A program made the translations under genes and the position numbers. A DNA stretch of 54,005 nucleotides. It comes from a virus. Taxonomy: Duplodnaviria > Caudoviricetes. Shown here in pieces: positions 5,559 through 54,005 of the stretch; position 1 is the first letter of the stretch, and each line of letters starts with the position of its first letter. The notes under the pieces were generated by a model. The model searched no databases and was not told the DNA's origin. It saw only the letters and a list, made by a program, of their open reading frames with translations. The stretch is taken from positions 1-54,005 of IMG/VR virus record IMGVR_UViG_3300035135_002245; one strand, 5' to 3'.

Positions 5559-5563
5559 TCATC

Positions 5564-6475: not shown

Positions 6476-6480
6476 TTTAA

Positions 6481-6672: not shown

Positions 6673-6693
6673 AATATAATCTCCTATTTTAAA

Positions 6694-6936: not shown

Positions 6937-6954
6937 ATTAACCTCCTGTATTTA

Positions 6955-7628: not shown

Positions 7629-7638
7629 TTTTTTCTCC

Positions 7639-20479: not shown

Positions 20480-20996
20480 CGTCTTTTATTTCTTGGTTTA
20501 TAATATCTTTCTTTTCTTGTCTTGATTGACCTGGTTTGAAGTATTGTTTAAGAACATCCTTTTGTAAAAAAACTTCTGAAATATATGTTATTGAATCCAA
20601 AGTATATGTTCTATAATTTTTACTATAAACTTTTGGTGAACTTTTTAACAACTTGTAAACTTGCTTTCCATCATCTGTTTTAATGTTACCAAAGTTTTTT
20701 AATACTTCATCTAAATGAAGTGCATCATCAATACTTTTTCTTTTATCTTTTAACTTAGTTAAAAACGATAAAAACTCTCTAGGATGTACTGAATTTAATT
20801 TTACTCCATGAAGTTGATTAGCAACTGCACCAAATATAAAAACATATGATGCATTACCACCTGCTAAATTTTTTGATTTACCATCTGCATATTTGTACTG
20901 AGAAATCTTATATAAATTTCTCAATCTAATATTAGATTTACCTACTCTGTTTTCGTTTTCTATTATCTTTTTATATGCAAGAAATTGTGTATCCAT
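20466..20996 (-). CDS. Hypothetical protein (weak resemblance to T4 gp2-like DNA end-protector family)
   Basis: Basic 176 aa ORF with LHGVKLN and NYRTY patterns; the family call is tentative. Confidence 0.5.
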   Translation of the reverse strand: MDTQFLAYKKIIENENRVGKSNIRLRNLYKISQYKYADGKSKNLAGGNASYVFIFGAVANQLHGVKLNSVHPREFLSFLTKLKDKRKSIDDALHLDEVLKNFGNIKTDDGKQVYKLLKSSPKVYSKNYRTYTLDSITYISEVFLQKDVLKQYFKPGQSRQEKKDIINQEIKDDDID

Positions 20997-26302: not shown

Positions 26303-26314
26303 TGAGAGATATAT

Positions 26315-26381
26315 AAAAAAATGAAGGTGGGAAAGTACTTCAGACAGCAATGACTTTTTCCAAGACCCACCTTTATTTTTA
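26315..26381 (-). terminator. Long-loop hairpin with U-tract after the TonB receptor gene
   Basis: Minus strand aaaaataaaggtggg-(34 nt)-cccaccttcattttttt. Confidence 0.5.
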
Positions 26382-26389
26382 TAAGTAGT

Positions 26390-29095
26390 TTAGAATCTTA
26401 ATTTTAAAGAAGCATTCCATGTACGTCCGAATCCGAACCATACTGAGTTTCTTGTATCGATTCCATTCCAAGTCTGTGAACTTCCATCAGCGTGGATGTT
26501 AGAGTTAGACTCGGCAATATAGTAAGTATCAAATAGATTATTTACGTTAACTCTAAATGTACTCTTTGTTCCGAATAAATCAAAACTATAAGTTGCACCT
26601 AAATCTGTTAATCCATATGATGGTAGTTTTAGTGCACCTAAATTATCAGGTTGTGTAAACTCTGAATCAGTAATTGAGTAATCTGCGTACAGATTATCTA
26701 CAAATCTATATCCTAAATCTACACTAAGGTTTTTACCAACCTTGTAATCAGCTTCAACATAAGATGTGAATTGTGCAGCATCACCAACTTTCGCATCTTT
26801 CAAGTACAATGTACCTGTTCCGATTTGTTCGTTGTTATCATCAAATAAAGCTGCTTCAAAATCTTTAGTATATCTCCAATCACCAACTGATAACATACCT
26901 TTTAATCTCAAGTTAGATGTTGGGTCATAAGTTGCCTCAACTTCTAAACCATTATGTACAACATCGATATCTTTGAATTGTGCAAATCCATCAACACCTT
27001 GTTGGTTAGATAAACTTCTTGTTACAAATCTATTACCCCATGTTGTAGAGTATAAGTTTACATTTGCTCTGAAGTTATTACTAACGAATCCATATCCTAA
27101 TTCAACAGATGTAATTTCCTCATTTTGTAAATCAGGATTAACTGTGTTTGCATAGTTAGGGAATACTCCATCAAAGTTTGGTTGTCTTGAAATAAATCCA
27201 GCATTAAAGAACACATTGTGTGAATCATTAATGTTGTAGTTAGCACCACCTTTTACATATCCACCACCAACATTTTTAGTTTCTGATTCTGGATTATCAG
27301 GTTGTGCAAAGTAATCAATTCTTTGGAAAGATTGATTAGATAAACCACCTTGTAATACAGCAGATACGATAGAGTTGTTATATTCAACTAAACCATTAAC
27401 ACCTTGCCAACCAACTTTACCAATATTATAGTAAGCGATTTTCGGGCCTCTGATACCTGTATTTTGGAAAGGATTAGCATCAACTAAAGTGTTGATAATT
27501 TGTCCTGCAGAGTTATCATTACCAGTTGAGTAATAACCATCTAATCCAAGAAGGTCGTTTAATACTCTGTAATGGTATCCTGTGTAGTTTCTCAAATCAA
27601 CACCAATCGAAGTTTTCCAATCTCCACTTTCATATTCTAAGTTAGAGATTGCTCCAACCCAGTCATGAGAGTTCATAGATGCTCTTCTAATCAAAGCACT
27701 TCTGTTCACACCATCTTCATTGAATCCATTAGAACCAATTAACTGACCACCGAATGGTAAATCACCAGTGTATGGGTCTGTATTTGATTGGTTAAATGCA
27801 ACTACTGCATCAAAATCAATGAATCCTTCAGGAGTTCTTGAACCTCTACCATTTTCTAAGTAGTGTTCAGTTAAATCCTTTCTGAAAGGTAAGATATCAG
27901 TTTCAGAGTTGTAGTAGTTTCTACCTCTTGGACCAGTTCCCCCACCTCTACCTGCTGAACCATATAATGATGTAGCAAGTTTTAGGTTTGAGTTAATATC
28001 CCAATCCCAATTCAGAGTTGCTAATGGTTTGTTGTAGAAGTTTCTTCTTAACGAATACTCTTCTCCATTTAAAATACCACCATTGGTATTCCATCTTCTA
28101 TCGATTCCTTCTTCACCAAAGTTTTGGTAATCTCTAATAGAAACCCAAACATCTCTTTGGTGGTGCCATTGTCCAGCACCTAAGAAAGAAAAGTTAACTG
28201 AGTGGTCTGAATCTTCAGGTGCATATCCTAATGCAAAGAAGTAAGTGTAACCCTCACCACTTGTATTATAGATATATCCATCACCTGCCCACTTTGAAAG
28301 TAATACAGATGTTGCCCATCCATTTTCATTTAGACCAGTTGAGTGAGCAACAGTAGTTTTTGTGTAACCATCGTTACCAAATACTTGTTGTACTGAACTA
28401 CCCTCTCTAGCCTCAGCTGCTTTTGTAAAAATTGAAACAGTTCCACCTACTGATGGTACTGCCAATTTCGAAGCTCCTAAACCTCTCTGTAATTGGATAC
28501 CACTTGCAACGTCTGTAAGACCTTGCCAGTTAGACCAATAAACCCATCCATTTTCCATATCATTAACAGGTTGACCGTTAATTAGGAAAGATGTGTTTCT
28601 TTGGTCGAATCCTCTCAAAGAGATTCTTGAATCACCATAACCACCACCTTGTTTAGTAGCATAAACACCTGGTGTTTTGTTCATGATTTCTGGAAACTCT
28701 TGGTTTCCAACTTTAAGAGCAATTTCTCTTGGTGAAATCGTAGATACTGCTACAGGAGTTTCTCTCACTTTTGCAATATCGATTACACCGGAACTAACTA
28801 CTACTTCACCGAGTACATTCAAATCAGGTGTTAAACCTACATTTGTTTCTACACTTGCGGCTACTACTGCAGTTTCGTATCCTAAATAAGAAACAACAAG
28901 TGCTTCTCCTTCGCTAACATCTAAAGTAAACGTGCCATCAAAACCAGAGACCGTTCCATCGGATGTTCCTTCAATGATAATGGTTGCACCAGGCAGTGCA
29001 TCACCAGTTTCACTGTCAAATACTTTCCCACTAATTTGTGCAAAAGTAGTGATACTTGTTAAAAGCATCATTCCAACTAATAATAGTTTTCTCAT
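26390..29095 (-). CDS. TonB-dependent receptor, Bacteroidota type (CarboxypepD_reg-like N-domain, plug, barrel)
   Basis: Signal peptide; ISGKVFD...LPGATI; LGEVVV TonB-box region; plug motifs TPGVY, ISLRGF, LINGQP; ends GRTWNASLKLRF. Confidence 0.93.
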   Translation of the reverse strand: MRKLLLVGMMLLTSITTFAQISGKVFDSETGDALPGATIIIEGTSDGTVSGFDGTFTLDVSEGEALVVSYLGYETAVVAASVETNVGLTPDLNVLGEVVVSSGVIDIAKVRETPVAVSTISPREIALKVGNQEFPEIMNKTPGVYATKQGGGYGDSRISLRGFDQRNTSFLINGQPVNDMENGWVYWSNWQGLTDVASGIQLQRGLGASKLAVPSVGGTVSIFTKAAEAREGSSVQQVFGNDGYTKTTVAHSTGLNENGWATSVLLSKWAGDGYIYNTSGEGYTYFFALGYAPEDSDHSVNFSFLGAGQWHHQRDVWVSIRDYQNFGEEGIDRRWNTNGGILNGEEYSLRRNFYNKPLATLNWDWDINSNLKLATSLYGSAGRGGGTGPRGRNYYNSETDILPFRKDLTEHYLENGRGSRTPEGFIDFDAVVAFNQSNTDPYTGDLPFGGQLIGSNGFNEDGVNRSALIRRASMNSHDWVGAISNLEYESGDWKTSIGVDLRNYTGYHYRVLNDLLGLDGYYSTGNDNSAGQIINTLVDANPFQNTGIRGPKIAYYNIGKVGWQGVNGLVEYNNSIVSAVLQGGLSNQSFQRIDYFAQPDNPESETKNVGGGYVKGGANYNINDSHNVFFNAGFISRQPNFDGVFPNYANTVNPDLQNEEITSVELGYGFVSNNFRANVNLYSTTWGNRFVTRSLSNQQGVDGFAQFKDIDVVHNGLEVEATYDPTSNLRLKGMLSVGDWRYTKDFEAALFDDNNEQIGTGTLYLKDAKVGDAAQFTSYVEADYKVGKNLSVDLGYRFVDNLYADYSITDSEFTQPDNLGALKLPSYGLTDLGATYSFDLFGTKSTFRVNVNNLFDTYYIAESNSNIHADGSSQTWNGIDTRNSVWFGFGRTWNASLKLRF

Positions 29096-29182: not shown

Positions 29183-29632
29183 TTATATTTTAAGTTTTAA
29201 TTTTGTTATTTGTTTTTTATCTACTCCGTATTTTTCACAGATGTATTTTATATTTTCTCTTCCCTCTCTTGTTGCATAAAGTATTTCACAGTACTCTTCT
29301 GCCTGTAGTTTAGATACTTGAAAATCTTGTTTAATAATATCCACTAGAAACTCTTCGTATTTGTTTACTTTTTTTCCTTTGACATATTTTAGATAGTATC
29401 TACCTTTTGGTATGATATTAATCAAAGCCAAATAATATTGTTTTGGACTTAATCTTTCGGTATATGGTTGTAAATCTGCTATGGTTGTAATCCAATCTGG
29501 ATTCATGGATAAGAATCTTTGTACCATGTAATTACTCCATGTTTTCTTATCACCATCTTCAAGTTTATCCCAATAGTTTGGGTCTTGAAATTGTGTAACT
29601 GCTTTTATGTGGTCAAATAAACTTTTTGCCAT
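29183..29632 (-). CDS. Clamp loader small subunit (T4 gp62-like)
   Basis: SLFDHIKA, YMVQRFLSM and IIPKGRYYLKYVK patterns; located near the clamp loader ATPase. Confidence 0.7.
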   Translation of the reverse strand: MAKSLFDHIKAVTQFQDPNYWDKLEDGDKKTWSNYMVQRFLSMNPDWITTIADLQPYTERLSPKQYYLALINIIPKGRYYLKYVKGKKVNKYEEFLVDIIKQDFQVSKLQAEEYCEILYATREGRENIKYICEKYGVDKKQITKLKLKI

Positions 29633-30194
29633 CTGTAAATAATTCTTTTATTCTTTCTTTAAAATTAATATACCCTTTCTTAGCATTTTCTTCCCATTTT
29701 GATGAATCACCATCATCACTTATCCACTTGAATGAGTATAATAGTTTGTTATAACGAGAACAAACTTGTGCAATAGAATATAATTCCATATCAACAATAT
29801 CACACTTCTTAATCATCTCTAAGTATTTCTCAGCATAATCTGTTCTATGTTTATCGTAAAATTGGTCTGTTGAAAAACATTTGATATCTGATTTACCTTG
29901 AAGAGTTATGGCACCCAATCCATGAAAAGGGGTGTATCCATATTCAGCAAAAGGTCTTACATCTATATTATTGTAGACCTTACCAACTGTAAGTACTTCT
30001 CCTATCTTATGATTTTGTAGATTACCACAAGAACCGAAATTAATTACATGGGATGGATTATATTTCTCAATCAATCGTGTTGTATTCATAGCAGCATTTA
30101 TTTTACCAACTCCTATGATGTGAATCTCACTTCCAAATATTTCTAGCTCTTGATGTTCTAACTCAGTTGCAGATAAAAATAAATACTTACTCAT
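29613..30194 (-). CDS. mtnN: MTA/SAH nucleosidase (PNP_UDP_1 family)
   Basis: GVGKINAA, INFGSCG, TDQF, VDME and KWISD motifs. Confidence 0.8.
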   Translation of the reverse strand: MSKYLFLSATELEHQELEIFGSEIHIIGVGKINAAMNTTRLIEKYNPSHVINFGSCGNLQNHKIGEVLTVGKVYNNIDVRPFAEYGYTPFHGLGAITLQGKSDIKCFSTDQFYDKHRTDYAEKYLEMIKKCDIVDMELYSIAQVCSRYNKLLYSFKWISDDGDSSKWEENAKKGYINFKERIKELFTDGKKFI

Positions 30195-30681
30195 ATGAAA
30201 TTAAACTTTTGACATCATAACCTTCGTAAAGACCTATATCTAACAAACATAATTTATCGGTAACTTCTAATCCATGTAGTTTACATAAATCTTCTGCTGC
30301 AGTAATTGTACCGCCTGTTGCAAGTACATCATCTACAATTACACAAGTTCCTAAATCATGTTGTGGAATATATGCCATTTCCAATTCATCCTTACCATAC
30401 TCTAATCCATACTTTACTGAAAATAATCTACTGTTTGGTAATTTACCTTTTTTACGAATCATCCTAATACCACCACCAAAGTGAAATGCAAGTGCAGATG
30501 CGAATATAAATCCTCGTGATTCAATCCCAACCCAATAGTTTGGAATTTCAACAAGGTCACCCATATCTTTTATTGCTGATTCGAAGGCAACTGTATTTGC
30601 CATTAGTGGTTGAATATCTTTGTACTGAATACCTTTGATTGGAAAATCAGGTATGTTTTCAATATACTCTTTGTAGTCCAT
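30187..30681 (-). CDS. apt: Adenine phosphoribosyltransferase
   Basis: PDFPIKGIQYKDI, GIESRGF, RKKGKLP, YGLEYG and IVDDVLATGGT motifs. Confidence 0.93.
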   Translation of the reverse strand: MDYKEYIENIPDFPIKGIQYKDIQPLMANTVAFESAIKDMGDLVEIPNYWVGIESRGFIFASALAFHFGGGIRMIRKKGKLPNSRLFSVKYGLEYGKDELEMAYIPQHDLGTCVIVDDVLATGGTITAAEDLCKLHGLEVTDKLCLLDIGLYEGYDVKSLISYE

Positions 30682-32081: not shown

Positions 32082-33710
32082 TTATTTTTTATGGAACACG
32101 AAAATCGGTTCGAATTTATATTGTTTACCATTATGTTCTACTGAATTTTTAATACCACTTTTAGATGGGTCTAATCCAACCATTCGTGTCATTAACATTT
32201 TCAGTTTACCTTTATATTCACAACCCAAATCTTTTAAGATATCAATAGAATCTTGTTCTAATGGATAATAAACTGATTTACCAATCTTGATATCAGCAAT
32301 ATTCCAAAGAATATATCTATCCTTCTTTAAATATTCGTATATAGTTGTTAGCGTAGGTTTTAAGAAGTTATCTCTCCAATCCTCATACTCACCATAGGCT
32401 TTGAACGATTGGTTCTCATCTTGTGAATATTGTTCTCTGTTAAAGTATGGTGGTGAAGTAAATGCAATATCTAATTTACCTTTATACTTTTGGAACTTTG
32501 GATTGTTTTGAATCAACTCCGAACCATCTTGAAATAGTTCGTAAGTATTACCTTGTTTTTCTACATTAAAAAATGATGTAAGTTTATCTGAGAAATCATC
32601 TACACAATTATCATTGTAAAACTTAGCAACATATTCATAACGAGAAATACCTAATTCATCCAAGAAGTTATCTGGATTAGGGTCTGTACCAACATAGTGA
32701 ACTTTCTTACGAGAACTCATAGCTCCGATGATTCTACCACCCCAACCACTTGATGAATCATAAATATGTAATGGTTCATCAGTATCAATGTGATTAGTAT
32801 AGTTTTCGTAAATCCACTTTGCAGTTAGTGCAGGAAAGTTTACTGCTGGTTGTCCACAACTCAATCTGAACACTTGTAATATCTTAGGAAAGATACCATC
32901 TGTTTTATCATACCAACGAATAAGGTATTTGTATTCTGTAACTGTTCCTGCTTCTGAGGTTGTTGATTCAACAATATCACCAAGATTTGATATTTGTGTT
33001 TTATCTAAGTAACCTGTTGCAACTAAACCATTTACTTCTGCAGCATCTAAATATAGATTTCCAAATCCTTGATATTGTTCATTGAATGTTCCATAGTTTT
33101 TTAATGTGGATGTTTTAACTTTTGCAAGTACGATACCTAAATCTTTATACTTTCCTTTAAAAACTTTTCCATCGTGAACATCTTTGATAAATTCAGAACC
33201 ACTCTGTCCATCCCAAAAAGGATTCTCATCTTTTTTATCTACGATTGAACGAGACCAAGAGTACATAGAATCTCTTTTAACTGCTCGTTTCATAATACGA
33301 ACAAACTTATCTTCTAACTCTGGGTCTGAAAAATGGTCGTAGATAGATAATCCACCTTCTGCAGATTTACCACTTGAAATCTTTGTTTTTAACATTGTAG
33401 GAAAAAACTGATTTACAACTGATGCATCTTTGTTAAAGTTTTGGATGATACCCAATGATTCTTCATCACCAGTTTTATCTTTTACCCAATACTTCGCAGG
33501 ATTTGATTTTAGTTTCTTAAATGATTTTACGATACCTTTTTCATCTTTACCAATGACAGGTGGAGTTCCTCTTTCATCCCATTGTTCAGTTACTTCTTTA
33601 CGAAGTAAACGAGCCCATGCTACGAACTCATCATCAGTCATTTGTAATAACTTATGATAAGACGTATTTGACTCGAACTCTGAAAATTTACTCCTTTCGT
33701 AAAAGTGCAT
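32082..33710 (-). CDS. Amino (N4-C/N6-A) DNA methyltransferase-like protein, SPPY type
   Basis: Motif I DSSSGWGGR, motif IV FTSPPYF and C-terminal EPIFVF. Confidence 0.8.
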   Translation of the reverse strand: MHFYERSKFSEFESNTSYHKLLQMTDDEFVAWARLLRKEVTEQWDERGTPPVIGKDEKGIVKSFKKLKSNPAKYWVKDKTGDEESLGIIQNFNKDASVVNQFFPTMLKTKISSGKSAEGGLSIYDHFSDPELEDKFVRIMKRAVKRDSMYSWSRSIVDKKDENPFWDGQSGSEFIKDVHDGKVFKGKYKDLGIVLAKVKTSTLKNYGTFNEQYQGFGNLYLDAAEVNGLVATGYLDKTQISNLGDIVESTTSEAGTVTEYKYLIRWYDKTDGIFPKILQVFRLSCGQPAVNFPALTAKWIYENYTNHIDTDEPLHIYDSSSGWGGRIIGAMSSRKKVHYVGTDPNPDNFLDELGISRYEYVAKFYNDNCVDDFSDKLTSFFNVEKQGNTYELFQDGSELIQNNPKFQKYKGKLDIAFTSPPYFNREQYSQDENQSFKAYGEYEDWRDNFLKPTLTTIYEYLKKDRYILWNIADIKIGKSVYYPLEQDSIDILKDLGCEYKGKLKMLMTRMVGLDPSKSGIKNSVEHNGKQYKFEPIFVFHKK

Positions 33711-36997: not shown

Positions 36998-38467
36998 CTA
37001 TTCTTCGTTATTATTTTCTACTGAAGTATCTTCAATTTCTTTATGTTCTTCAATGTGACATTCTCTGTGAAGAACAACCATTTTCTTAACATCTAAACCA
37101 CCATGTTTAGCGTACTCTTCGATGTGATGAACATCATCATGAATACCAACATCTTTACCACATCTTCTACATTTGTGGTTAGTATTATCAAGAACATCAA
37201 TTCTTTCACTCCATTTAACATTTCTATCTTTAGTTCTAATTGAAAGACCAAACTCTTCTTCAAACTTGGTGAATCCTTCTTGAGTTGCCCCACCCATTTC
37301 TGAAAGTTTTATATCAAGGTAAAAATTTAAATTATCGATAAGTTCAGAAGTGAACTCGGAGTTCTGTGTCTTTTGTTCAAAATCCCATTTGTTACCTCTA
37401 ATGGTTAAAACCTTACCCATTCTCTTTCTTACTCCTACATACATATCATACACAAACGAATTAAATTTTTCGTAATCTGTAATTAAGATTTCATTCTCAC
37501 TTCTTATGTCATGTAACCAATGAATCAGTAATCTGATTTTACCCCAATTATAAGAACCTTTTCTGTTAACAGGTATGTTCTTTACAAACTTTTCAATAAT
37601 TGTAATATAATTTTTAAATTCAGTACTAACACTATCAGTATAATCTGACATCTTATCTCTCATCTTCTTGTTTATCTTTCCAATAACTCCATTTGATTGG
37701 TAAAGTTGAATATAAAGATTAAGAACTAATTCACTTGGTTTGAATCTCATATTATCGATTCCTAACTTTTCCCAAGTATCTTTCATAGAGGTGTTAATAT
37801 CTCTTAAATAATCAAATAGTTTAGTACCATATGAAAGTAAAATTTCAATGGCCTTCAATGGTGTTTGACCAACATTTAAATTTCTAAACCATCTTCTAAT
37901 ATATCCTTCATCACCTTCAATGAAAACTACATTCAATGTTCTTTTCTGTAAAAGTTGTTGAACCAATACTTCACCATTTGGTTCTTTTTTCAAATCTTCG
38001 TAACTCATTCCACTTGCATCATACCAAGTACCCTCTACAAGACCAGGAATGATTGTACCAGTTGGTAAAACAAACAACCCCTTTATCCAATTACCCATAG
38101 ATGTTAATCGTTGTTGACCATCTACAGCTTCAAAGATTTGTTTTAATCTTTGAATAGCCAAGTACAATGGGTCATGAAGTTCTCCCATCAACATGGCTTT
38201 AACAATTTGTTGTTGTTGTGATATTGTTTTTACAAATAATCTTTGGAATCTTTTAGGAATTGTAATAAATCCCCAAAGTAATGTGAAGTTTTCAAGTGAT
38301 TTACTGAAATCATCTTTATCAGTTCCAAAAAATATATTCCAAAGAGATATTTTCCTATCCTTTGGTTCGTGTGTACTTTCAGGTACAACATTACACCTTT
38401 TATCCCTTCGGATACCATTGACCACTTCGGCCTGTTGTTCTGGTGTTAAACTTAATAATGAATTCAT
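36998..38467 (-). CDS. DUF262-HNH fusion (GmrSD-like nuclease)
   Basis: VDGQQRLT and FRNLN..TPL (DUF262); C-terminal CRRC...DVHHI...GG...VLHRECH (HNH). Confidence 0.8.
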   Translation of the reverse strand: MNSLLSLTPEQQAEVVNGIRRDKRCNVVPESTHEPKDRKISLWNIFFGTDKDDFSKSLENFTLLWGFITIPKRFQRLFVKTISQQQQIVKAMLMGELHDPLYLAIQRLKQIFEAVDGQQRLTSMGNWIKGLFVLPTGTIIPGLVEGTWYDASGMSYEDLKKEPNGEVLVQQLLQKRTLNVVFIEGDEGYIRRWFRNLNVGQTPLKAIEILLSYGTKLFDYLRDINTSMKDTWEKLGIDNMRFKPSELVLNLYIQLYQSNGVIGKINKKMRDKMSDYTDSVSTEFKNYITIIEKFVKNIPVNRKGSYNWGKIRLLIHWLHDIRSENEILITDYEKFNSFVYDMYVGVRKRMGKVLTIRGNKWDFEQKTQNSEFTSELIDNLNFYLDIKLSEMGGATQEGFTKFEEEFGLSIRTKDRNVKWSERIDVLDNTNHKCRRCGKDVGIHDDVHHIEEYAKHGGLDVKKMVVLHRECHIEEHKEIEDTSVENNNEE

Positions 38468-38915: not shown

Positions 38916-39086
38916 TTATTTTACACTTTTTTTGCAACTTTTTTTATGAAAAAATAACCCCCCACATTTACATTTTACATAGTAAACTGTTGATGCTATT
39001 ATTGGTGAAGATGCCATTGCTGTCCAAACATTAGGATGCCAATGTTCTCCACAAAATCCAAATATATGTTTTATAAATTCTATCAT
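38916..39086 (-). CDS. 56 aa Cys/His-containing hypothetical protein
   Basis: Manual translation MIEFIKHIFGFCGEHWHPNVWTAMASSPIIASTVYYVKCKCGGLFFHKKSCKKSVK*; ATGA overlap with the upstream methyltransferase stop. Confidence 0.6.
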   Translation of the reverse strand: MIEFIKHIFGFCGEHWHPNVWTAMASSPIIASTVYYVKCKCGGLFFHKKSCKKSVK

Positions 39087-40324
39087 TTTTCAAATATCCA
39101 AATTGGTTCTGCGAATGTTTTATCTTTTGTTTCCTCTGATAACTTTAACACTTCTTCAGAGTATTGTTTTTCGTTTGATTCAGTTTGTTTTACAGTTCCT
39201 GCTCCACCACTATTAGGACGTTTTGCCATTTCCATTCCTATTGCACCTCTGTATTTTAATCCTTTATGTATTAAAAAATCACACATAGGATTTGTAATCT
39301 CTTTCCATGTTTTACCACCTTTACCAGCAGTATAAACATCTGATATATTTATTGCAATCAAACCACCTTTCTTAACTGTTGGTATGATTTTATTTAGTGA
39401 TTTATGTAAAAAATATCTATTCCATCCATCTATATCTTTATATCGTATCCAACTCTGAGTATCATCGTGTGAGTATCTTTCAACATTAAAATAAGGTGGT
39501 GATGTAAATACTAAATCGAAATAATCATCGTATTTAGAATAATCAAAATCTTCAGCAGGTGAACAATAGAAATCAGTTTTAGTTGGTGATTCAAAGAAAG
39601 TAGTATGTTTTTCGTAAAAATCTCTTTGTTGTTCATAGATAGGATGATTCTCTTTACGAGGGTCTAAACCTACATAGTGTTCAATAGTTTCTGAAGCAAA
39701 GGCTCCACTTAATCTATCGCCCCAGCCCATACTGAAGTCAAGCATTGTCTTACTACCAAAATACTCAGTTAAACATTTAGTGACGTTGGGCTTGTGTTGA
39801 GATGCGATATATTTACGAAGTGATATCATCAAACGTAATTCTGATTTACCTATCTTATCAAACTTCAATGAATAAGCAGCACCCATCAATGTTTTCATAA
39901 ATGCTGGTGTTTCCCATGTCCTCTTTGGGCCTGGATAACCACTTGAACATATTGACCATCTGTTTGCTTCTTGATGTTTATTACTAGAAAGATTACCTAC
40001 ATTGTATCTTTTGAAATATAAAGGAGTACCATCAAATGTAAGTGGATATTTTGTTTCAGTTGCTTGTCTCATGAACCATTCACCTTCCTTGAGAAGCTCA
40101 TTCCAGCGAATTCCTTTTAATTTTCCATAATCTTTTACAACATCTTCCCACTCCCATTTATCAGTAGCGTAAGGTAATGGCCAAGATGCAGCTACTTCGG
40201 CAAGAGACTCTTTCACCACATCTTGTTCATATTTACCCTTGATTAATTCCCATTCTTCATTCTCAATGAGAAAGTAATCACCTTTGTAATTTTCTCTTTT
40301 ATATTTCTCTAGTTCTTTTATCAT
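39083..40324 (-). CDS. Amino (N4-C/N6-A) DNA methyltransferase-like protein, SPPY type
   Basis: DFSMGWGDR, FTSPPYF and EPIWIF motifs; paralogous to 32082..33710. Confidence 0.82.
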   Translation of the reverse strand: MIKELEKYKRENYKGDYFLIENEEWELIKGKYEQDVVKESLAEVAASWPLPYATDKWEWEDVVKDYGKLKGIRWNELLKEGEWFMRQATETKYPLTFDGTPLYFKRYNVGNLSSNKHQEANRWSICSSGYPGPKRTWETPAFMKTLMGAAYSLKFDKIGKSELRLMISLRKYIASQHKPNVTKCLTEYFGSKTMLDFSMGWGDRLSGAFASETIEHYVGLDPRKENHPIYEQQRDFYEKHTTFFESPTKTDFYCSPAEDFDYSKYDDYFDLVFTSPPYFNVERYSHDDTQSWIRYKDIDGWNRYFLHKSLNKIIPTVKKGGLIAINISDVYTAGKGGKTWKEITNPMCDFLIHKGLKYRGAIGMEMAKRPNSGGAGTVKQTESNEKQYSEEVLKLSEETKDKTFAEPIWIFEK

Positions 40325-41950
<1,626 letters not shown>

Positions 41951-42793
41951 TTAATTTAAATTTAGTGATTTTTTGTACGAACCACCGATGTTCCAAAATA
42001 AAATCTTTCCATCTAGTGACTCTATATTTTCTTCTAACCAATACCACATCTTTTTATCCCAAAATTCGTTACAATCAAATGGAACAGAATAATCTTCCAT
42101 AAAATCATTGAATTCAAATGGGGATTTATAAATGTTAATATTGTTTAAATCTCCTGCTTTGTTTTCATTTAGAATCTTTTTTGTAGATTCTATTGATGAC
42201 ATCGTAATAGTGTGAACTTTTCTTCTGTTATTAAGTAAATCTTTCCAATCTGTATATTGTAAAAATTCTTTTATTAAACCAGAAGCAGTTACCCCACTAC
42301 CGATTGATACAACAAGATGGTCGAAATCTTCTTCTTCCAAAACTTGTTTCATCCTACTCTTCATGTAATCTACATAAGCAGGATGATTAAAAGCATACGG
42401 TAATTGTTGCCAACCATTCTTTTTTGCGATACCACCAAGTTTATTCTCAAGTAGTTTCATCATGTTTGGTTTCATCGGATTTAAAGTTGCACCATTACCT
42501 TTGATTATTTCTAATATCTGAGGTGGATATGTTTTAGAATTTGGATATGATGATATAAATTCAATACCATAATCCTTACACATCCTAGATAATGTCCAAC
42601 CAGTCCAACTTCCATATACTGAAAGATGTGTTAGTGGTTTTGATTTATCAATATAATCAGATTCTATAATCTTTCTTATACCTTCAATCTTTGCCCATCG
42701 AGGATAATTTATACCATCCCCAACTAAATCATCTCGTTTGACATGAACTGTCTTTCCTTTTAGTTTATATTCTTCTATCGGAGTTAGAACCAT
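41951..42793 (-). CDS. PLP-dependent fold-type II enzyme (ACC deaminase / D-cysteine desulfhydrase-like)
   Basis: VHVKRDDL...WAK (PLP lysine region), VVSIGSGVTASGL phosphate loop and ILFWNIGG. Confidence 0.8.
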   Translation of the reverse strand: MVLTPIEEYKLKGKTVHVKRDDLVGDGINYPRWAKIEGIRKIIESDYIDKSKPLTHLSVYGSWTGWTLSRMCKDYGIEFISSYPNSKTYPPQILEIIKGNGATLNPMKPNMMKLLENKLGGIAKKNGWQQLPYAFNHPAYVDYMKSRMKQVLEEEDFDHLVVSIGSGVTASGLIKEFLQYTDWKDLLNNRRKVHTITMSSIESTKKILNENKAGDLNNINIYKSPFEFNDFMEDYSVPFDCNEFWDKKMWYWLEENIESLDGKILFWNIGGSYKKSLNLN

Positions 42794-43710
42794 TCGTGTT
42801 GTACTTCGTTTTTAATTTTATTGTAATGAGATATAAGTTGTTTCTTTTCAACTCCAAAGATTTCACAATGAAGTGTATTTATATCTCCTTTTTCTTTTTT
42901 AGTATGAAAGTTAGATTTGTTTTTTGCATTACCAAATCTCTCAAACTCATCTTTAAATAATACATCAGTTACAAACCACTTTTTCTTTTCTTTCATTTTA
43001 TCATCTTCAAATTTGAAATTAGTTTGTTCATAATTTACATTCTGAAAATGTTTGTAGATACTTTCTGTCTGTAATGGTGTATCTAAAGTAATTCCATATG
43101 AATTAATATATTTTCTAATTGATACATGATTATGTACATTACCATTAAAGTTTTTATCTTCATAACACATTCTACGATGGTCATTATAATGTTTATCAAA
43201 ATCTTCTCTTGTAACAACACCCTTTAACATATCTCTATACTTGATACTAAGTTTGGCGTTTGTTTCATATATAACATCCTCATATAATCCCGCAACTAAA
43301 TGTTTGGTTGAAATATGTTGTAACATATACCAATATGCATAACAACATTGAATATCTATTTTTCTTGATATTCCAATTCTATCGATACCATCTTTTATTA
43401 TTTTAGATGCACTTTCTTTATTTATTTTAGGTATGTTTACAATTTCTAATGGAATACCATATCCTTTTGCAATCTTACGAGAATAGATTAAATCATTTGT
43501 ATCGTAATCTTCTACTTGAAATGTAAGTAACTGAGATGGCTTCTTACCTAATTCCATCAGACCATATAATAACATAGATGAATCTATACCAGCAGAAAAT
43601 GATAATGAATAATCATCTGGTATTTCTGATAATCTATCTAATAAAAGTTCTTTAAAATCCCATGCCCATTTCGGATTGGGGTCAAACTTAAATGATTCGT
43701 GTACTCTCAT
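42784..43710 (-). CDS. PP-loop (N-type ATP pyrophosphatase) protein, asparagine-synthetase C-domain-like, with no glutaminase domain
   Basis: LSFSAGIDSS PP-loop; D...SRKIA..YGIP; GLYED in place of GEGADE; 308 aa. Confidence 0.75.
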   Translation of the reverse strand: MRVHESFKFDPNPKWAWDFKELLLDRLSEIPDDYSLSFSAGIDSSMLLYGLMELGKKPSQLLTFQVEDYDTNDLIYSRKIAKGYGIPLEIVNIPKINKESASKIIKDGIDRIGISRKIDIQCCYAYWYMLQHISTKHLVAGLYEDVIYETNAKLSIKYRDMLKGVVTREDFDKHYNDHRRMCYEDKNFNGNVHNHVSIRKYINSYGITLDTPLQTESIYKHFQNVNYEQTNFKFEDDKMKEKKKWFVTDVLFKDEFERFGNAKNKSNFHTKKEKGDINTLHCEIFGVEKKQLISHYNKIKNEVQHEWF

Positions 43711-44405
43711 TTACCTAATACTTCTAATAACTTGATAGTTTTCTTTTTTTCATTATCCATATCACCGATATGACATGAACAAGCAAGTGTAGTTACTTTC
43801 CCTAATTCTAATCCACTTTGTTCAGCAAGGAAGTGTCCCATCTCTGTTAATGCAGTATAATCTGCGTAACCACTTTTAGATACTCTATTTGAACGAAGTA
43901 CTGATGTTAGGTATAATTTACCATCTCTTGGTTTTAAATCAATCATACACATACAAGGTTGTGAATAGGGATTCCTTGCATCTTTTGTAGGGTCAAAGAT
44001 AATAAGTTCACATCTTTTTACAGCCTGTCCTTTACTTAAAATCTTAATTACATTTTCAACTTGATTGAATTCACCCTTCCAAGATACCATTCTACCCCAA
44101 TAAGATTGATACCAATGGTCTTTAATATATTTGTAATCCAAACCTTCTTCTTCTTCAAAGAATGGATTATCTGATTTCTTTTCTTCTGGTTTAAGGAATG
44201 TAACAGTTTTGGCAAAATCAATTCTATCATCACCCATCACTTCTCTGAAGTGTCCATCAAACCAATCATCTGATTTGAATTCTGTGATTTCAGTTACTAC
44301 ATTGAGTTCTTCTGTTAGATTACCAACCTTAACACCATGTTCTAATAAATGTTTTGATACTTTCACCCAGGCATCTCCTGGCGATGTTGCCTCTATAACT
44401 GTCAT
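43707..44405 (-). CDS. Thymidylate synthase / dCMP hydroxymethylase superfamily protein (atypical)
   Basis: NQVENVI..L, R...IIFDP..D, catalytic PC, GKL.LT..LRSN and SCHI. Start set at ATG 44405 (ATGA overlap). Confidence 0.8.
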   Translation of the reverse strand: MTVIEATSPGDAWVKVSKHLLEHGVKVGNLTEELNVVTEITEFKSDDWFDGHFREVMGDDRIDFAKTVTFLKPEEKKSDNPFFEEEEGLDYKYIKDHWYQSYWGRMVSWKGEFNQVENVIKILSKGQAVKRCELIIFDPTKDARNPYSQPCMCMIDLKPRDGKLYLTSVLRSNRVSKSGYADYTALTEMGHFLAEQSGLELGKVTTLACSCHIGDMDNEKKKTIKLLEVLGK

Positions 44406-44602
44406 ATATGTGTCCAAGTTTTTCGTTTAACAATTTCTTCTACGTTCCAAGTAGATACTTTGAAATTACGAGCTATGATATTAGTAGAGAAACCCTTAGA
44501 ATAGAGTTCTCTTATTTGTCTCACTTGTTGAGATGTGAGTTTTGCTCTTGGATGAGATTCACCTCGTAACCTATTAGAGAAAAACCATAAGCTTTTCACC
44601 AT
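44402..44602 (-). CDS. Stand-alone HTH protein resembling the C-terminal DNA-binding tail of HNH homing endonucleases
   Basis: RGESHPRAKLTSQQVRQIR...IARNFKVS...IVKRKTW; no HNH core. Confidence 0.7.
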   Translation of the reverse strand: MVKSLWFFSNRLRGESHPRAKLTSQQVRQIRELYSKGFSTNIIARNFKVSTWNVEEIVKRKTWTHI

Positions 44603-44618
44603 ACTTTTTAAAATTTAA

Positions 44619-44651
44619 GCTAATATAAGAAAAATATTTGAGAAATCCAAA
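44619..44651 (-). promoter_or_regulatory. Bacteroidota-type promoter, copy 4
   Basis: Minus strand tttggatttctcaaatatttttcttatattagc. Confidence 0.7.
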
Positions 44652-44658
44652 TAAAATC

Positions 44659-46721: not shown

Positions 46722-47141
46722 TTATATTAATTTTATTTGTGAAGAGTTTCCATAATTACCGAAAATTTCTTCGTTTATTTTTATATCTTTTATTGCTATA
46801 CCTGTTTTACTATCAATACTTCCTTCTTCAAATTGTGTATTTAATAAACACAATGGGTCTGAAAATAAAAAATTACAATCCTTCGTTAATTTGAAATTAA
46901 TTTCAGAATTATCGTTAACTATATTATTCCCATAAGAACGAAGTACATATGATAATACTTCTTTAGGTAACTGTTTGGCTTCACCAAACTTTATTTTGTA
47001 CCAACCAGTTTCTCCTTTCCATGTTGGAAAAACTTGTTCTCCTTTTTTTATATCAACCAAAGCAAATAATCCAACTCCATGAACACTGCTTGTTCTTTGA
47101 TAACTTTTAACTGAAGTATTTAAATAATCAAATGGGTTCAT
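46722..47141 (-). CDS. SET-domain protein
   Basis: SSVHGVGLFALVDIKKGE and AIKDIKINEEIFGNYG; the NHS motif is degenerate (LLNTQ). Confidence 0.8.
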   Translation of the reverse strand: MNPFDYLNTSVKSYQRTSSVHGVGLFALVDIKKGEQVFPTWKGETGWYKIKFGEAKQLPKEVLSYVLRSYGNNIVNDNSEINFKLTKDCNFLFSDPLCLLNTQFEEGSIDSKTGIAIKDIKINEEIFGNYGNSSQIKLI

Positions 47142-47718
47142 GTATTACATTTTTTTGAAATACACCATCTATAAAATAACTCCAATTACAATTATGTGTT
47201 TGTTCAATTACTTTTGGATAGTGTTCTCTATGAGGAGAATCTATCTTGAATTGAAAAGAATGTAAATCACTAGTATCTCTTAATACGAAATAACTAAAAA
47301 TTGATAATACACAATTTTCATTTGAGATTAGTTTTGCGTAATCTTCAAATTTAGAATAGTTAGGGTCATCATAAGTATCTAAAAAAATACCATCAAACTT
47401 AACATCTAACGTTGGGATTACATCTATCCAATCTCCAAAATATAAATGAACATTATCTTTACCTTCAGCCCATTTCTGTGCTTCGTTAAAGATTTGTGGA
47501 TTTGTTTCTATACAATGATAATTACCAACCTTGTTATAGATTGCATCAGCACTATATCCTAATCCAAATCCAACATCTAATACTTTTCCACCATTTTGTG
47601 TAACAATATTAGAGTAAAATTCCATCAATTGTTTGGACACTACATCCATAACAATTTTAGAATCATCATCTGAATACGATATCCTCGTATCTGTTATTGT
47701 AACCTTTTTGTTTTTCAA
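47128..47718 (-). CDS. Class I methyltransferase, RMT2/guanidinoacetate-methyltransferase-like
   Basis: GGKVLDVGFGLGYSA, HCIETNP, GDWIDV and FDGIFLDTY. Start tentatively set at TTG 47718, just after the nrdB stop. Confidence 0.75.
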   Translation of the reverse strand: MKNKKVTITDTRISYSDDDSKIVMDVVSKQLMEFYSNIVTQNGGKVLDVGFGLGYSADAIYNKVGNYHCIETNPQIFNEAQKWAEGKDNVHLYFGDWIDVIPTLDVKFDGIFLDTYDDPNYSKFEDYAKLISNENCVLSIFSYFVLRDTSDLHSFQFKIDSPHREHYPKVIEQTHNCNWSYFIDGVFQKNVIHEPI

Positions 47719-47722
47719 ATTT

Positions 47723-48718
47723 TTAAAATAAATCGTCCCAATCCTCACCCTCGTTTGCCTTAGAATAATCAGTAGGTCTAATAGCAAAGAAATCTGTGTG
47801 AGTGTGTCCGCCTGTAAGATGATAGAACCATTCTAAATTTTCTGATTTCTTTTTATTGTAATCAAAAATTGATTCGTATCCTAATTCTTTTAACTTGGTG
47901 TTTGTTCTTTCTTTGATGAATTCTTTTAAATCATCTGCTTTCAGATTTTCTAAATCTCCCATCTCGAACATTTTATCAATAAATTTAGTTTCGAGTTCTA
48001 CAATTAATTTTGCAGCTTCCTCGATAGAATCTTTACATTGTTCTTGTAGTTCAGGATATTCTTCACACATATGTCTGAATAATTGACATCCCATTCTACT
48101 ATGAAGTGATTCATCTCTTACACTCCATTTCATTTGTTGTCCGATTCCTTTTAGTTTGTTTCTCATTTGGAACGAATAAAGAACAGCAAAGGAAGAGTAG
48201 AGAGATACTCCTTCAGCAAATGCTGAAAAAATTGCTAAACTTCTACCTACTTCCTGTCTTGCTTTTTCGTTCTTTTGTAAATCTTCGTGTGTCCAATCTG
48301 CCGAAGTTTGAGTAAGTAATTCAAATTTTTCTGCAACCGCAGGTTCATGTAGAAATGCTGAGAAATCATCCAACCCTAAAGTTTCATTTAAATAAGAATA
48401 TGCTGTTGCATGAATGGTTTCTTGTGAACCAAACATCATAGCCATTTGTCTAATTTCATGTTTGGGAAACCAATCAGTAACCATGTTAGTCCAATAATCA
48501 GATACTGCACATTCTGTTTGTGCAAATCCTAATAGGATGTTACCAACTAAATTCTTTTCTGACTCTGTTAGGGTTTCGTTCCAATCTTTAACATCCCCTT
48601 GCATTGGAATTTCAGTATGTAACCAAAATGCCTGTGCCTGTTTTAACCAACCTTCGTTGTAATAAATTGGATATTCGAATGGTTTGAACGGTACTCGTTC
48701 TGTGAATAATTTGCTCAT
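47723..48718 (-). CDS. nrdB: Ribonucleotide reductase class Ia beta subunit
   Basis: FW..EI, ETIHATAY, EGVSLYSSF, RDESLH and TDFF motifs. Confidence 0.95.
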   Translation of the reverse strand: MSKLFTERVPFKPFEYPIYYNEGWLKQAQAFWLHTEIPMQGDVKDWNETLTESEKNLVGNILLGFAQTECAVSDYWTNMVTDWFPKHEIRQMAMMFGSQETIHATAYSYLNETLGLDDFSAFLHEPAVAEKFELLTQTSADWTHEDLQKNEKARQEVGRSLAIFSAFAEGVSLYSSFAVLYSFQMRNKLKGIGQQMKWSVRDESLHSRMGCQLFRHMCEEYPELQEQCKDSIEEAAKLIVELETKFIDKMFEMGDLENLKADDLKEFIKERTNTKLKELGYESIFDYNKKKSENLEWFYHLTGGHTHTDFFAIRPTDYSKANEGEDWDDLF

Positions 48719-53688: not shown

Positions 53689-54005
53689 TTATTTGGCCCA
53701 TTTTTTTCTTTGTACAATTTGTGATATTACACCATATACAGACAAATCTTCATAGGTATCTTGGATGTTCTCCCCTACCTCATCTGGTTGTCCTTTTACC
53801 ACTAATTGTAATAATCTTTGAATCTTATCATTCTTCCTAAACCAAAGACCTGTAAGTGCAACTTTGATATCATCTTCAGTTTCTAAAGGTGTACCAACTG
53901 ATATGTTACCAGGCCCATAATTCCTCTGTTTTTTACAGAAGGTTTCATACATTTCATCTAGGATGTTCTTAAATTCTTGTGTAGTTTGTGGATATTTTTC
54001 TTCGC
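53689..54005 (-). CDS. DUF1599 / nucleotide-modification-associated all-alpha domain protein; 5' end outside the window
   Basis: KKQRNYG, R.NDKIQRL and E.IQDTYEDLSVYGVI motifs; the frame stays open to the window edge. Confidence 0.7.
   Translation of the reverse strand, partial: EEKYPQTTQEFKNILDEMYETFCKKQRNYGPGNISVGTPLETEDDIKVALTGLWFRKNDKIQRLLQLVVKGQPDEVGENIQDTYEDLSVYGVISQIVQRKKWAK

Follow-up and report, generated by a model that had tools for sequence, protein, structure and literature searches.

By hypermodifying their DNA, phages defeat both restriction enzymes and CRISPR nucleases, and these modifications have provided tools for DNA labelling and epigenetic sequencing. The characterised pyrimidine pathways in the literature we examined begin from few handles, i.e., a hydroxymethyl, hydroxy or carboxymethyl group. 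Among the closest described systems, Pseudomonas phage M6 produces 5-(2-aminoethyl)uridine through gp51 (aGPT-Pplase2), gp52 (PLP decarboxylase), gp53 (radical-SAM isomerase) and gp54 (5-hmdU DNA kinase), with gp52 decarboxylating C-alpha-glycinylthymidine on DNA (PMC8989533). The CmoA/CmoX/CmoY system of Synechococcus phage S-B43 yields 5-carboxymethylcytosine (5cxmC) and then its glycine amide, CmoY ligating glycine to 5cxmC on DNA, and ligase clusters both with and without a glutaminase are reported in the same paper (PMC12783734). Finally, the 5-hydroxy-dCMP synthases of RB69, DLP3 and HY126 are described as flavin-dependent thymidylate synthase (TS) homologues with a D169N plus N177D signature (PMC13326640).

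The window, i.e., the whole 54,005-nt stretch of viral DNA analysed here, contains four co-directional minus-strand genes set among RNR, thioredoxin and PolB genes. These encode a small HTH protein of 66 aa (44402..44602), a TS-fold enzyme of 232 aa counted from an ATG (43707..44405), a glutaminase-less AsnB-family PP-loop ligase of 308 aa (42784..43710) and a fold-type-II PLP enzyme of 280 aa (41951..42793), with successive overlaps of 4 nt (ATGA), 4 nt and 10 nt. A TTG start would extend the TS-fold ORF to 43707-44417, yet the ATG at 44405 is the likelier start because the listed relatives are almost all 232 aa long. A groEL-type chaperonin gene (40325..41944, minus strand; Cpn60, 6.9e-70) starts 6 nt after the PLP gene and is abutted by the gene for a 413-aa SPPY methyltransferase-like protein (39083..40324, minus strand), a second paralogue of which, of 542 aa, lies at 32082..33710 on the same strand (PF01555, 1.4e-6). 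The overlapping genes, their family calls and the order groEL then SPPY methyltransferase thus agree with the original prediction. The promoter that it placed at 44619-44651 does not: a sigma-70 scan returned no minus-strand site there, where only an AT-rich spacer of 56 nt was read, running from the thioredoxin stop to the HTH start (44603..44658, minus strand). Sigma-70 sites overall showed no excess over shuffled sequences (32 vs 37.1 ± 5.2). The host's promoter type may differ, and a promoter inside this spacer is possible. Of two further genes thought to fit a modified genome, a GmrSD-like nuclease is present (Pfam matches to GmrSD_N and HNH, 36998-38467), whereas DUF1599 dwindled to a weak sub-threshold match in a truncated ORF (53689-54003; 16.7-16.8 bits against a cut-off of 25).

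The TS-fold protein matches Thymidylat_synt (PF00303) over residues 103-219 only (E = 9.3e-7, 28.7 bits against a cut-off of 24.3) and the model TIGR03283 'thy_syn_methano' over its full length (3.4e-22), at 79 bits against an equivalog cut-off of 174.55. Its Cys151, Arg171/Ser172, His212 and Asp182 match E. coli C146, R166/S167, H207 and N177 in alignments A2, which took in E. coli ThyA, T4 gp42 and M6 gp58, and A4, as well as by hhalign; the catalytic Cys and the phosphate-binding R166/S167 positions are invariant in A2 and hhalign. An AF2 model (pLDDT 84) gave 396 Foldseek matches in the PDB at E ≤ 0.001, and among the matches listed the top ones are all TS-family chains, the best being the phage HY126 dCMP hydroxylase 9iqu (E = 1.9e-12) and MilA. 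The predicted structure therefore assigns the protein to the TS superfamily fold. Asp occupies the cytosine-specifying position, E. coli N177, in 18/18 aligned family members, which supports the 'cytosine-type' homologue originally proposed.

Other positions depart from the characterised enzymes. The D169 position holds Arg in the window clade (Arg174) and Ala in the jumbo-phage clade (A2), the L143 position holds Ser or Gly and not the Glu of 5-hydroxy-dCMP synthases, and a stretch of ~28 residues around W80/W83 is absent in A2. In the profile-profile comparison by hhalign, E. coli residues 110-208 alone could be aligned, the N-terminal half could not. Known assignments were tried and rejected in turn: a classical folate-dependent TS or dCMP hydroxymethylase, for want of Asp169 and with the folate-binding N-terminal half (E58, W80, Y94) unalignable; an archaeal short TS, on a TIGR03283 score below the curated equivalog cut-off despite the full-length match; and a 5-hydroxy-dCMP synthase, which shares N177D but not D169N (here R or A) or a Glu at L143. 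Nor would the protein be the phage's dTMP synthase, because 5/5 complete relatives encode a separate ThyA or ThyX elsewhere. Judged from its residues, it fits none of the three known signatures, whether for a methyl, hydroxymethyl or hydroxy product.

For the next gene, the predicted PP-loop enzyme with SAGIDS and without glutaminase was recovered on both counts: the motif spans residues 39-44, with S39, G41, D43, S44 and S45 invariant in 12/12, and no GATase (class II glutaminase) domain matched in Pfam within the 308 aa. The protein matches phrog_26038 at 9.2e-16; its own QueC and AsnB matches are sub-threshold, and PF00733 is above cut-off in its homologues from two other loci (L019, at 2.6e-8, and L084). 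Matches by tblastn include genes annotated 'asparagine synthase' in Synechococcus phages S-B05 and S-B43 and gp67 of a Staphylococcus phage, and in S-B05 and the Staphylococcus phage this gene sits between a methyltransferase-domain gene and a cytosine-methyltransferase gene. Only its N-terminal half aligns with the S-B05 protein, at 24-25% identity, and the nearest Atlas clusters are viral short Asn_synthase proteins. A ligase of the same module in locus L092 is closer to CmoY, at 27% to the S-B05 protein and 36% to the Staphylococcus phage gp67. The window protein is thus a candidate glutaminase-less AsnB-family ATP-dependent amide ligase, distantly related to CmoY. Its form is in the minority, with 12 short ligases against 46 full glutamine-dependent AsnB proteins among 59 TS-anchored loci. 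The 501-aa relatives have the glutaminase domain and begin with MCGI or VCGI in 12/12 sampled, the Cys of which we take to be the glutaminase nucleophile.

The PLP enzyme scored below cut-off with PALP (2.6e-5), and it was phrog_7093 (5.7e-23) that bore out its predicted family. By tblastn it aligned to M6 gp52 with 28.3% identity over 95% of its length (E = 8e-19), and matched 65 phage records, each with at least 80% coverage. The predicted Schiff-base lysine, K35, is the counterpart of gp52 K36 in the alignment and invariant in 8/8 sequences, as are G167 and G172 of a Gly-rich SxGSG stretch that presumably binds the PLP phosphate, and family-specific C-terminal motifs are common to the two proteins. 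This points to a full-length member of the gp52 family, with a predicted decarboxylase activity.

The 413-aa SPPY protein matches N6_N4_Mtase (PF01555) at 1.7e-6 (28.6 bits against a cut-off of 26.7) and has both motif IV (FTSPPYF) and SAM-binding motif I of that family. Its 542-aa paralogue is 30% identical over 244 residues (E = 2e-23) and shares its motifs; LDFSxGWGDRLxG, YVGxDP, SPAE and FTSPPYF are conserved in 11/11 paralogues. The fold is that of a generic class I methyltransferase (MTase), with fold matches at TM about 0.3. MTase-like genes are adjacent in 36/40 TS-anchored loci with full flanks, and around the TS-fold gene of the jumbo-phage clade 1-4 copies lie in an interval reaching 4.5 kb upstream and 5.5 kb downstream. 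This methyltransferase-like gene, often multi-copy, belongs to the conserved module. By comparison, groEL is a passenger inserted inside the module in the window's lineage: in seven close relatives the MTase-like gene directly follows the PLP gene without groEL between them, and in two other loci groEL is located beyond PolB. The HTH gene is not a core part either. It occurs upstream of the TS-fold or MTase-like gene in many loci of the window clade and was not seen in those of the jumbo-phage clade. Its product has weak HTH_38/HTH_7 matches and a match to the C-terminal part of phrog_20467 'HNH endonuclease' (1.2e-8), and is probably a regulator or the remnant of a homing-endonuclease DNA-binding domain.

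Next, we considered how widely the module is kept. The suggested check for co-occurrence of the three enzyme families came out positive, the families being linked in deeply diverged phage contigs. Of the viral loci anchored on the TS-fold gene, 59 extend at least 3 kb downstream; these are not independent and include many close relatives, and the PLP gene is found in 56/59 and an AsnB-family gene in 58/59. Gene order is kept across three TS identity classes (≥72%, 45-55% and 40-44%) with differing flanks. Overall, these data support a functional unit of the three enzyme genes. Within it, three AsnB-family types (full AsnB, window type and CmoY type) interchange at the same place, and a radical-SAM family is an alternative partner that sometimes replaces the PLP gene and in one protein forms a fusion with the TS-fold domain. 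The module is common. The TS-fold family, which source annotations label 'thymidylate synthase', takes in 185 relatives that reach E ≤ 0.001 within the scored candidates, and a single 90% cluster holds 334 sequences from 111 contigs. It is almost only viral, with 1 match among 185,579 species genomes, on a MAG contig carrying the same module. A 10-kb stretch around the module is present in 19 sequencing runs from 9 studies, spanning seawater, estuary, wetland and reef.

On balance, with somewhat better than even confidence, we read the module as one that hypermodifies a pyrimidine of phage DNA, cytosine being the likeliest, and that belongs to a combinatorial family found in large uncultured aquatic phages. 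It most likely decorates a DNA base, probably cytosine, with a group that carries an amide and an amine. In such a scheme, the TS-fold Cys would attack C6 of dCMP and a first handle would be placed on C5; we infer the substrate, cofactor and added group of this step from a protein whose fold, Cys and Asp are shown. An amino-acid-type unit with a carboxylate would then end up on the base. Going by homology and linkage, the AsnB-family PP-loop enzyme would adenylate the carboxylate to give an amide, most relatives taking ammonia from glutamine; since the window ligase has no glutaminase, it would use free ammonia, an amine or an amino acid, as CmoY does with glycine. On the same grounds, the M6-gp52-type PLP enzyme would strip the alpha-carboxylate of a base-linked alpha-amino acid to leave a primary amine, and the SPPY paralogues may act on DNA, through N-methylation or sequence-specific writing. 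Of the amino-acid- or sulfur-derived cytosine substituent first envisaged, the amino acid part fits the homology to M6 gp52 and CmoY, while nothing points to sulfur.

Several points count against this scheme. No amino-acid-attaching enzyme was found, identity to characterised homologues is only 24-30%, and the Arg or Ala at D169 together with the unalignable N-terminal half bears on the cofactor of the first step. In addition, amidation and decarboxylation would draw on the same carboxylate, except where the side chain offers two or the ligase adds the second. More tentatively, and as a possibility that we rate well short of even, the product may be an undescribed DNA base made by a single assembly of a fourth TS-fold catalytic type (neither methyl, hydroxymethyl nor hydroxy), radical-SAM enzymes and base-flipping SPPY proteins, in which amidation and decarboxylation would lead to an aminoalkyl-carboxamide. 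Diphthamide-like chemistry, transferred to DNA, is one possible parallel for such a side chain.

The alternative that survives best, although we consider it rather unlikely, has the MTase-like, AsnB-family and PLP proteins as the core and places the chemistry on cytosine N4 or adenine N6, both exocyclic nitrogens. An SPPY protein would transfer a carboxylate-bearing group (carboxymethyl or 3-amino-3-carboxypropyl) from SAM or an analogue, to be amidated or decarboxylated, with an optional TS-fold enzyme supplying 5-substituted cytosine. Counted from the PLP gene (n = 59), loci have an AsnB-family gene in 56/59, an MTase-like gene in 48/59 and a TS-fold gene in just 41/59. The TS-fold gene is thus missing in 18/59, as well as in one complete 134.5-kb genome, so that the system may not centre on C5 chemistry, and the original proposal that the three enzymes together build a C5 substituent becomes one reading among several. 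One clade (L143-L159 and L167), which includes one complete genome, has the arrangement MT-PLP-(2-hydroxyacid-dehydrogenase-like)-MT-AsnB without a TS-fold gene, a radical-SAM::MTase-like fusion exists in one protein, and the paralogue expansion suggests sequence-specific writers. CmoB, a Cx-SAM user, is among the fold matches and one paralogue has a weak Methyltransf_9 match; however, these fold matches are the generic ones noted above, no CmoA-type gene was seen, and the window's 219-aa MTase-like ORF had no CmoA match in NCBIfam. Moreover, non-methyl transfer by an SPPY enzyme is proposed by analogy, the competition for one carboxylate persists for an aminocarboxypropyl group, and the TS-fold::radical-SAM fusion binds the TS-fold enzyme to the same chemistry.

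We find it improbable that the TS-fold enzyme alone touches the DNA precursor (giving 5-methyl-, 5-hydroxymethyl- or 5-hydroxy-dCMP), with the AsnB and PLP genes as auxiliary metabolic genes (for asparagine synthesis or serine/threonine breakdown) or small-molecule donor makers that are neighbours through shared early expression. In favour of this, the 501-aa relatives exceed the NCBIfam cut-off for the glutamine-hydrolysing enzyme (288 vs 267 bits), keep the N-terminal Cys and SGGxDS in 12/12 sampled and have E. coli AsnB as best solved relative (5e-40). Likewise, the PLP family bears the database label 'threonine dehydratase', and in one clade the PLP gene has a 2-hydroxyacid-dehydrogenase-like neighbour that looks like a gene of small-molecule metabolism. 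Yet the swapping of three AsnB types is easier to square with a common tailoring role than with asparagine supply, the linkage persists across very different genomes, and the PLP protein has the lysine and C-terminal motifs of gp52, which is shown to act on DNA (PMC8989533). Less probable again is a module that targets RNA (e.g., tRNA) or resembles MilA of the mildiomycin pathway in producing a free metabolite of nucleoside type: MilA, a CMP hydroxymethylase, is the best solved-structure sequence match (2.7e-6) and MTase-like fold matches include the tRNA enzymes aTrm11, MnmM and CmoB, but the module lies within a block of genes for DNA replication and nucleotide metabolism, PF01555, which the MTase-like proteins match, is a family of DNA methylases, and the nearest characterised relatives of 2/3 enzymes work on DNA. 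An ordinary thymidylate synthase, as source annotations and the full-length archaeal match would have it, is scarcely credible given Asp in place of N177 in 18/18 members, the loss of D169, the sub-equivalog score and the ThyA or ThyX encoded elsewhere in 5/5 complete relatives.

Returning to hypermodification of a DNA pyrimidine, the novelty would lie in the set as a whole, in which a divergent TS-fold enzyme of cytosine type occurs with an enzyme that forms amides, a PLP enzyme of the gp52 type and an expanded group of SPPY methyltransferase-like proteins. No paper in the literature searched describes this set, in line with the original statement that no characterised pathway was known to combine the three enzymes. 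If the product is new, it would add one more base to the known repertoire, a new TS-fold reaction type and possibly sequence-specific enzymes placing an amine or amide handle on DNA. Should the aminoalkyl-carboxamide reading be true, the ligase, PLP and radical-SAM parts, being interchangeable, would amount to a natural combinatorial kit from which abundant marine phages obtain several new bases of related kind.

Compared with known systems, the TS-fold protein resembles MilA (CMP 5-hydroxymethylase; PDB 5b6d, 5jnh) in its aligned Cys and Asp and in structure (TM 0.69-0.70), but MilA is longer (325-342 aa in solved chains), has an Asp at the D169 position (RAND) and uses a ribonucleotide in a bacterial antibiotic pathway. 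With T4 gp42 it shares the fold, the Asp at N177 and adjacent tailoring genes in a replication block; gp42, however, retains D169 (RSND), published T4-type enzymes have an acidic residue at the L143 position that is lacking here, and the T4 tailoring glucosyltransferases are unrelated to the enzymes of this module. The 5-hydroxy-dCMP synthases, which act on dCMP, are likewise small TS-fold proteins with N177D and are the best structural matches (9iqu/9iqc, E = 1.9e-12, TM 0.64-0.68), but have D169N and L143E where the window family has Arg/Ala and Ser/Gly, and their partners are sugar-nucleotide enzymes and glycosyltransferases instead of AsnB and PLP enzymes. Like S-B43, the module pairs an AsnB-family ATP-dependent amide ligase with a cytosine-modifying enzyme; a C5 DNA methyltransferase of the CmoX family was found in 0/5 records searched, and the partners here are the TS-fold enzyme, the PLP enzyme and the SPPY-type proteins. 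With M6 it shares a TS homologue nearby and a full-length gp52 homologue with the same lysine. A radical-SAM enzyme, integral to M6 as gp53, is an optional partner in the window's relatives and shows no BLAST similarity to gp53, and a Pfam scan of 56 ORFs of the window found no 5-hmU DNA kinase or aGPT-Pplase family. Here, the TS-fold enzyme is of cytosine type and not a dUMP hydroxymethylase, and it is joined in 58/59 TS-anchored loci by an AsnB-family partner that is not among the M6 pathway proteins gp51-gp54. Taken together, we regard the module as a new variant within phage base hypermodification.

The window, a 54-kb fragment from a virus record of 29% completeness (CheckV), has a G+C content of ~31%, and its ORFs of at least 90 aa all lie on the minus strand, save a few nested in longer minus-strand ORFs. 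ORF calls together with Pfam and PHROG scans bore out the place and family originally predicted for four consecutive minus-strand genes, i.e., an HTH gene (44402–44602), a TS-fold gene (43707–44417 as first called), a PP-loop gene (42784–43710), and a PLP enzyme gene (41951–42793). The TS-fold gene most likely starts at an ATG at 44405, because the listed relatives are almost all 232 aa; this ATG overlaps the HTH stop codon as ATGA, and the following junctions overlap by 4 nt (TS-fold/PP-loop) and 10 nt (PP-loop/PLP). Also on the minus strand, groEL (40325–41944) begins 6 nt past the PLP stop codon and is abutted by an SPPY methyltransferase-like (MTase-like) gene (39083–40324). A promoter proposed at 44619–44651 could not be recovered: a sigma-70 scan yielded no minus-strand site there, the region was without excess of such sites (32 vs. 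37.1 ± 5.2 in shuffles), and just a 56-nt AT-rich spacer lies at that place. Searched at the DNA level against 50,697 phage records, the 2.7-kb region had no match. Both GroEL (Cpn60, 6.9e-70) and GroES (15838–16140, minus strand; Cpn10, 9.7e-26) are phage-encoded; the position of groEL varies among relatives, and close relatives lack it at this position.

At the protein level, a tblastn search with the PLP protein matched 65 phage records, each with ≥80% query coverage, the best match being gp52 of Pseudomonas phage M6 (28.3% identity, residues 4–270, E 8e-19). PMC8989533 reports that purified gp52 acts on DNA as a PLP-dependent decarboxylase, turning C-alpha-glycinylthymidine into 5-(2-aminoethyl)uridine, that K36 is its likely Schiff-base lysine, and that the homologous ViI gp226 decarboxylates O-serinylthymidine. 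K35 of the window protein aligns with gp52 K36 and is invariant in 8/8 aligned sequences, and the C-terminal family-specific residues PF.xN, K.W.W, and FWN.G are kept along with it. A PDB sequence search with the window PLP protein gave nothing at E ≤ 0.1.

The PP-loop protein, in which no glutaminase domain was detected, carries SAGIDS at residues 39–44. In phage records it matched only a protein of a Staphylococcus phage and proteins labeled “asparagine synthase” in Synechococcus phages S-B05, S-B43, and RB11-B (24–26% identity). In S-B05 and the Staphylococcus phage, the matched gene has a gene for a methyltransferase-domain protein on one side and one for a cytosine methyltransferase on the other. 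The S-B43 counterparts of the three genes are CmoA, CmoY, and CmoX, of which CmoY joins glycine to 5-carboxymethylcytosine in DNA with ATP (PMC12783734); from its position, we infer that the matched “asparagine synthase” gene is CmoY. A PDB sequence search with the ligase profile returned only NAD synthetase (0.016). The Staphylococcus phage vB-SscS-F1 (MW589261.1) carries its triad of methyltransferase-domain, CmoY-like, and cytosine methyltransferase genes at 5305–7823, with a CmoY-like protein 35% identical to that of S-B05. This triad suggests that a phage with a Gram-positive host has a system of the 5-carboxymethylcytosine type.

For the TS-fold protein, the PF00303 match was confined to the C-terminal half, and TIGR03283, the archaeal short-TS model, matched over the full length far below its cut-off. 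Alignment with E. coli ThyA, T4 gp42, and M6 gp58 indicated that C146, R166, S167, and H207 are kept, while the N177 position is Asp, like in T4 gp42, the L143 position is Ser or Gly, and the D169 position is Arg in the window clade and Ala in the jumbo clade, two groups of loci found through the TS-fold gene. Profile–profile comparison aligned only residues 110–208 of E. coli ThyA. The closest folds to an AF2 model (pLDDT 84) were phage HY126 dCMP hydroxylase (9iqu, 9iqc) and MilA; the titles of PDB entries 9IQU, 9IQC, and 9IR2 come from the fold search, and a literature search on these codes returned nothing relevant. According to PMC13326640, D169N plus N177D marks flavin-dependent 5-hydroxy-dCMP synthases, and hydroxymethylases have an acidic residue at position 143. 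Carrying neither signature, the TS-fold protein is, judged by these residues, a cytosine-type TS-fold enzyme assigned to neither product type. Its family has few members and a sharp boundary (14 representatives at E ≤ 1e-30 in a set of 1.84 billion) and is almost exclusively viral, with a single match in 185,579 species genomes, on a MAG contig with the same module. All five complete relatives have a separate ThyA (G001–G003) or ThyX (G004 and G005), and 4/5 have a dCMP deaminase. The small HTH protein of the window resembles the C-terminal part of GIY-YIG/NUMOD3-type homing endonucleases, and in several relatives the TS-fold gene has such an endonuclease gene next to it or fused to it (L072:6233–7687, L075:9190–9816, and L069:6975–7274). 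Homing endonucleases of this type also account for the 484-aa TS fusion and the “extra” ORFs seen in these three loci and in P0189, and were rejected as pathway parts.

The TS-fold alignment, used to scan IMG/VR, retrieved 72 loci, not independent samples, with identities to the window protein of ≥72% (47 loci), 45–55% (18), and 40–44% (7). Co-occurrence of the three enzymes, the neighborhood check named in the original prediction, was confirmed: among the 59 loci with ≥3 kb downstream, a PLP gene was present in 56 and an AsnB-family gene in 58. The latter encoded the full 501-aa GATase_7 + Asn_synthase protein in 46 loci (starting MCGI or VCGI in 12/12 sampled) and a short one, like the window’s or CmoY-like, in the remaining 12. 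A radical-SAM gene replaced the PLP gene in all three PLP-less loci (L070, L075, and L084), and L074 had both. In 36/40 fully flanked loci, an MTase-like gene was found in the stretch from 4.5 kb upstream to 5.5 kb downstream, and in the jumbo clade up to three copies precede and up to two follow the enzymes, with a maximum of four per locus. Since the flanks vary by clade, with RNR, thioredoxin, and PolB genes around the window-clade loci and helicase and T5orf172 genes around those of the jumbo clade, this linkage goes beyond simple inherited synteny. Two fusions, each a single observation, tie the TS-fold, radical-SAM, and MTase-like families together: an 801-aa radical-SAM::MTase-like protein in L070 and a 676-aa TS-fold::radical-SAM protein (P0195). 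The relatives’ radical-SAM genes were discarded as M6 gp53 homologs, BLASTP revealing no similarity, and the window’s own twitch-domain radical-SAM/SPASM protein (24959–26350, minus strand; NF033640, 8.4e-93) is unrelated to the module-linked radical-SAM family.

The best 80 of 197 relatives were kept from a PLP-anchored search, and 59 of these loci had ≥3 kb upstream, where an AsnB-family gene occurred in 56/59, an MTase-like gene in 48/59, and a TS-fold gene in 41/59. The combination kept most consistently is thus AsnB-family, PLP, and MTase-like, with the TS-fold gene in about 70% of loci. One clade (L143–L159 and L167) has the order MTase-like, PLP, D-2-hydroxyacid-dehydrogenase-resembling protein, MTase-like, AsnB, without a TS-fold gene, and the window-clade relatives L162 and L165 likewise lack one. 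Because the PF00303 genome search was too insensitive for this family, having missed the copy in G003, the absence was re-tested with the TS-fold family profile A4: neither model found a TS-fold gene in a complete 134.5-kb member of the TS-less clade, the profile search being without a positive control and hence weaker than it looks. The TS-less module, which adjoins clamp and clamp-loader genes, is exemplified by L156:4548–11434, encoding MTase-like (482–484 aa), PLP, D-2-hydroxyacid/glyoxylate-reductase-like (292 aa; best PDB match 4.8e-6), MTase-like (314 aa), and AsnB (478 aa) proteins.

We regard the module as a DNA pyrimidine hypermodification pathway with moderate confidence; the gene families, their key residues, the linkage, and the fusions are observed, whereas we infer the substrate, step order, and product. 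This reading has a real difficulty in that amidation and decarboxylation each require a carboxylate; the side chain would therefore have two, the ligase would supply the second, or the two enzymes would target different groups. The enzyme attaching the amino-acid unit was not found, and Pfam detected neither a 5-hmU kinase nor an aGPT-Pplase among 56 window ORFs. The main rival, rather unlikely in our estimate, would make the SPPY proteins central, transferring a carboxylate-bearing group to an exocyclic nitrogen. A uronic-acid alternative, in which the amidated carboxylate would be that of a base-linked glucuronic acid, was considered because a UDP-glucose dehydrogenase and glycosyltransferases lie at 12–24 kb of the window, and was dropped as a general feature, with the UDP-glucose dehydrogenase family present in 1/5 complete relatives. 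A CmoX/CmoA route was rejected, as a C5 methylase was found in 0/5 records searched and the 219-aa MTase-like ORF at 47128–47787 is not CmoA (NCBIfam).

Other minus-strand genes of the window include a cluster at 12420–23649 encoding an NAD-dependent epimerase/dehydratase, a HAD phosphatase fused to a nucleotidyltransferase, two GT2, one GT1-like, and one GT4 glycosyltransferase, a UDP-glucose dehydrogenase, and a Methyltransf_24 protein, which could serve DNA glycosylation or host-surface change. Within the replication block, a 901-aa ORF (26390–29095) encodes an outer-membrane receptor with CarboxypepD_reg, Plug, and TonB-dependent receptor beta-barrel domains, an order that is typical of Bacteroidota SusC-like proteins and could be a clue to the host. 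Nucleoside-phosphorylase-family (PNP_UDP_1) and phosphoribosyltransferase genes (29613–30681), i.e., nucleotide-salvage functions, adjoin the clamp-loader genes. A SET-domain gene (46722–47141) and the 219-aa SAM-methyltransferase-like gene (47128–47787) lie between the two RNR subunit genes and were seen only in window-clade relatives (L004, L005, L008, and L029–L031). The predicted GmrSD-like nuclease was identified by Pfam as a GmrSD_N (DUF262) + HNH protein (36998–38467) between PolB and the module, with a 36%-identical copy between the PLP gene and PolB in L050 and L051; it is a type-IV-restriction-like enzyme, here encoded by a phage whose own DNA it probably modifies itself. The predicted DUF1599 gene corresponds to a match in the truncated last ORF, weak and sub-threshold.

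Our literature search found no description of a system uniting a TS homolog, an AsnB-family enzyme, and a PLP enzyme of the gp52 type, and further papers or supplements may hold more. PMC8989533 mentions amidoligase and glutaminotransferase domains, to which it gives no role, on some of the contigs that have the kinase and aGPT-Pplase2. The original prediction had presented a candidate new base-modification operon; since each part of the putative hypermodification module now has a characterized relative, each of them distant, the module is not categorically new.
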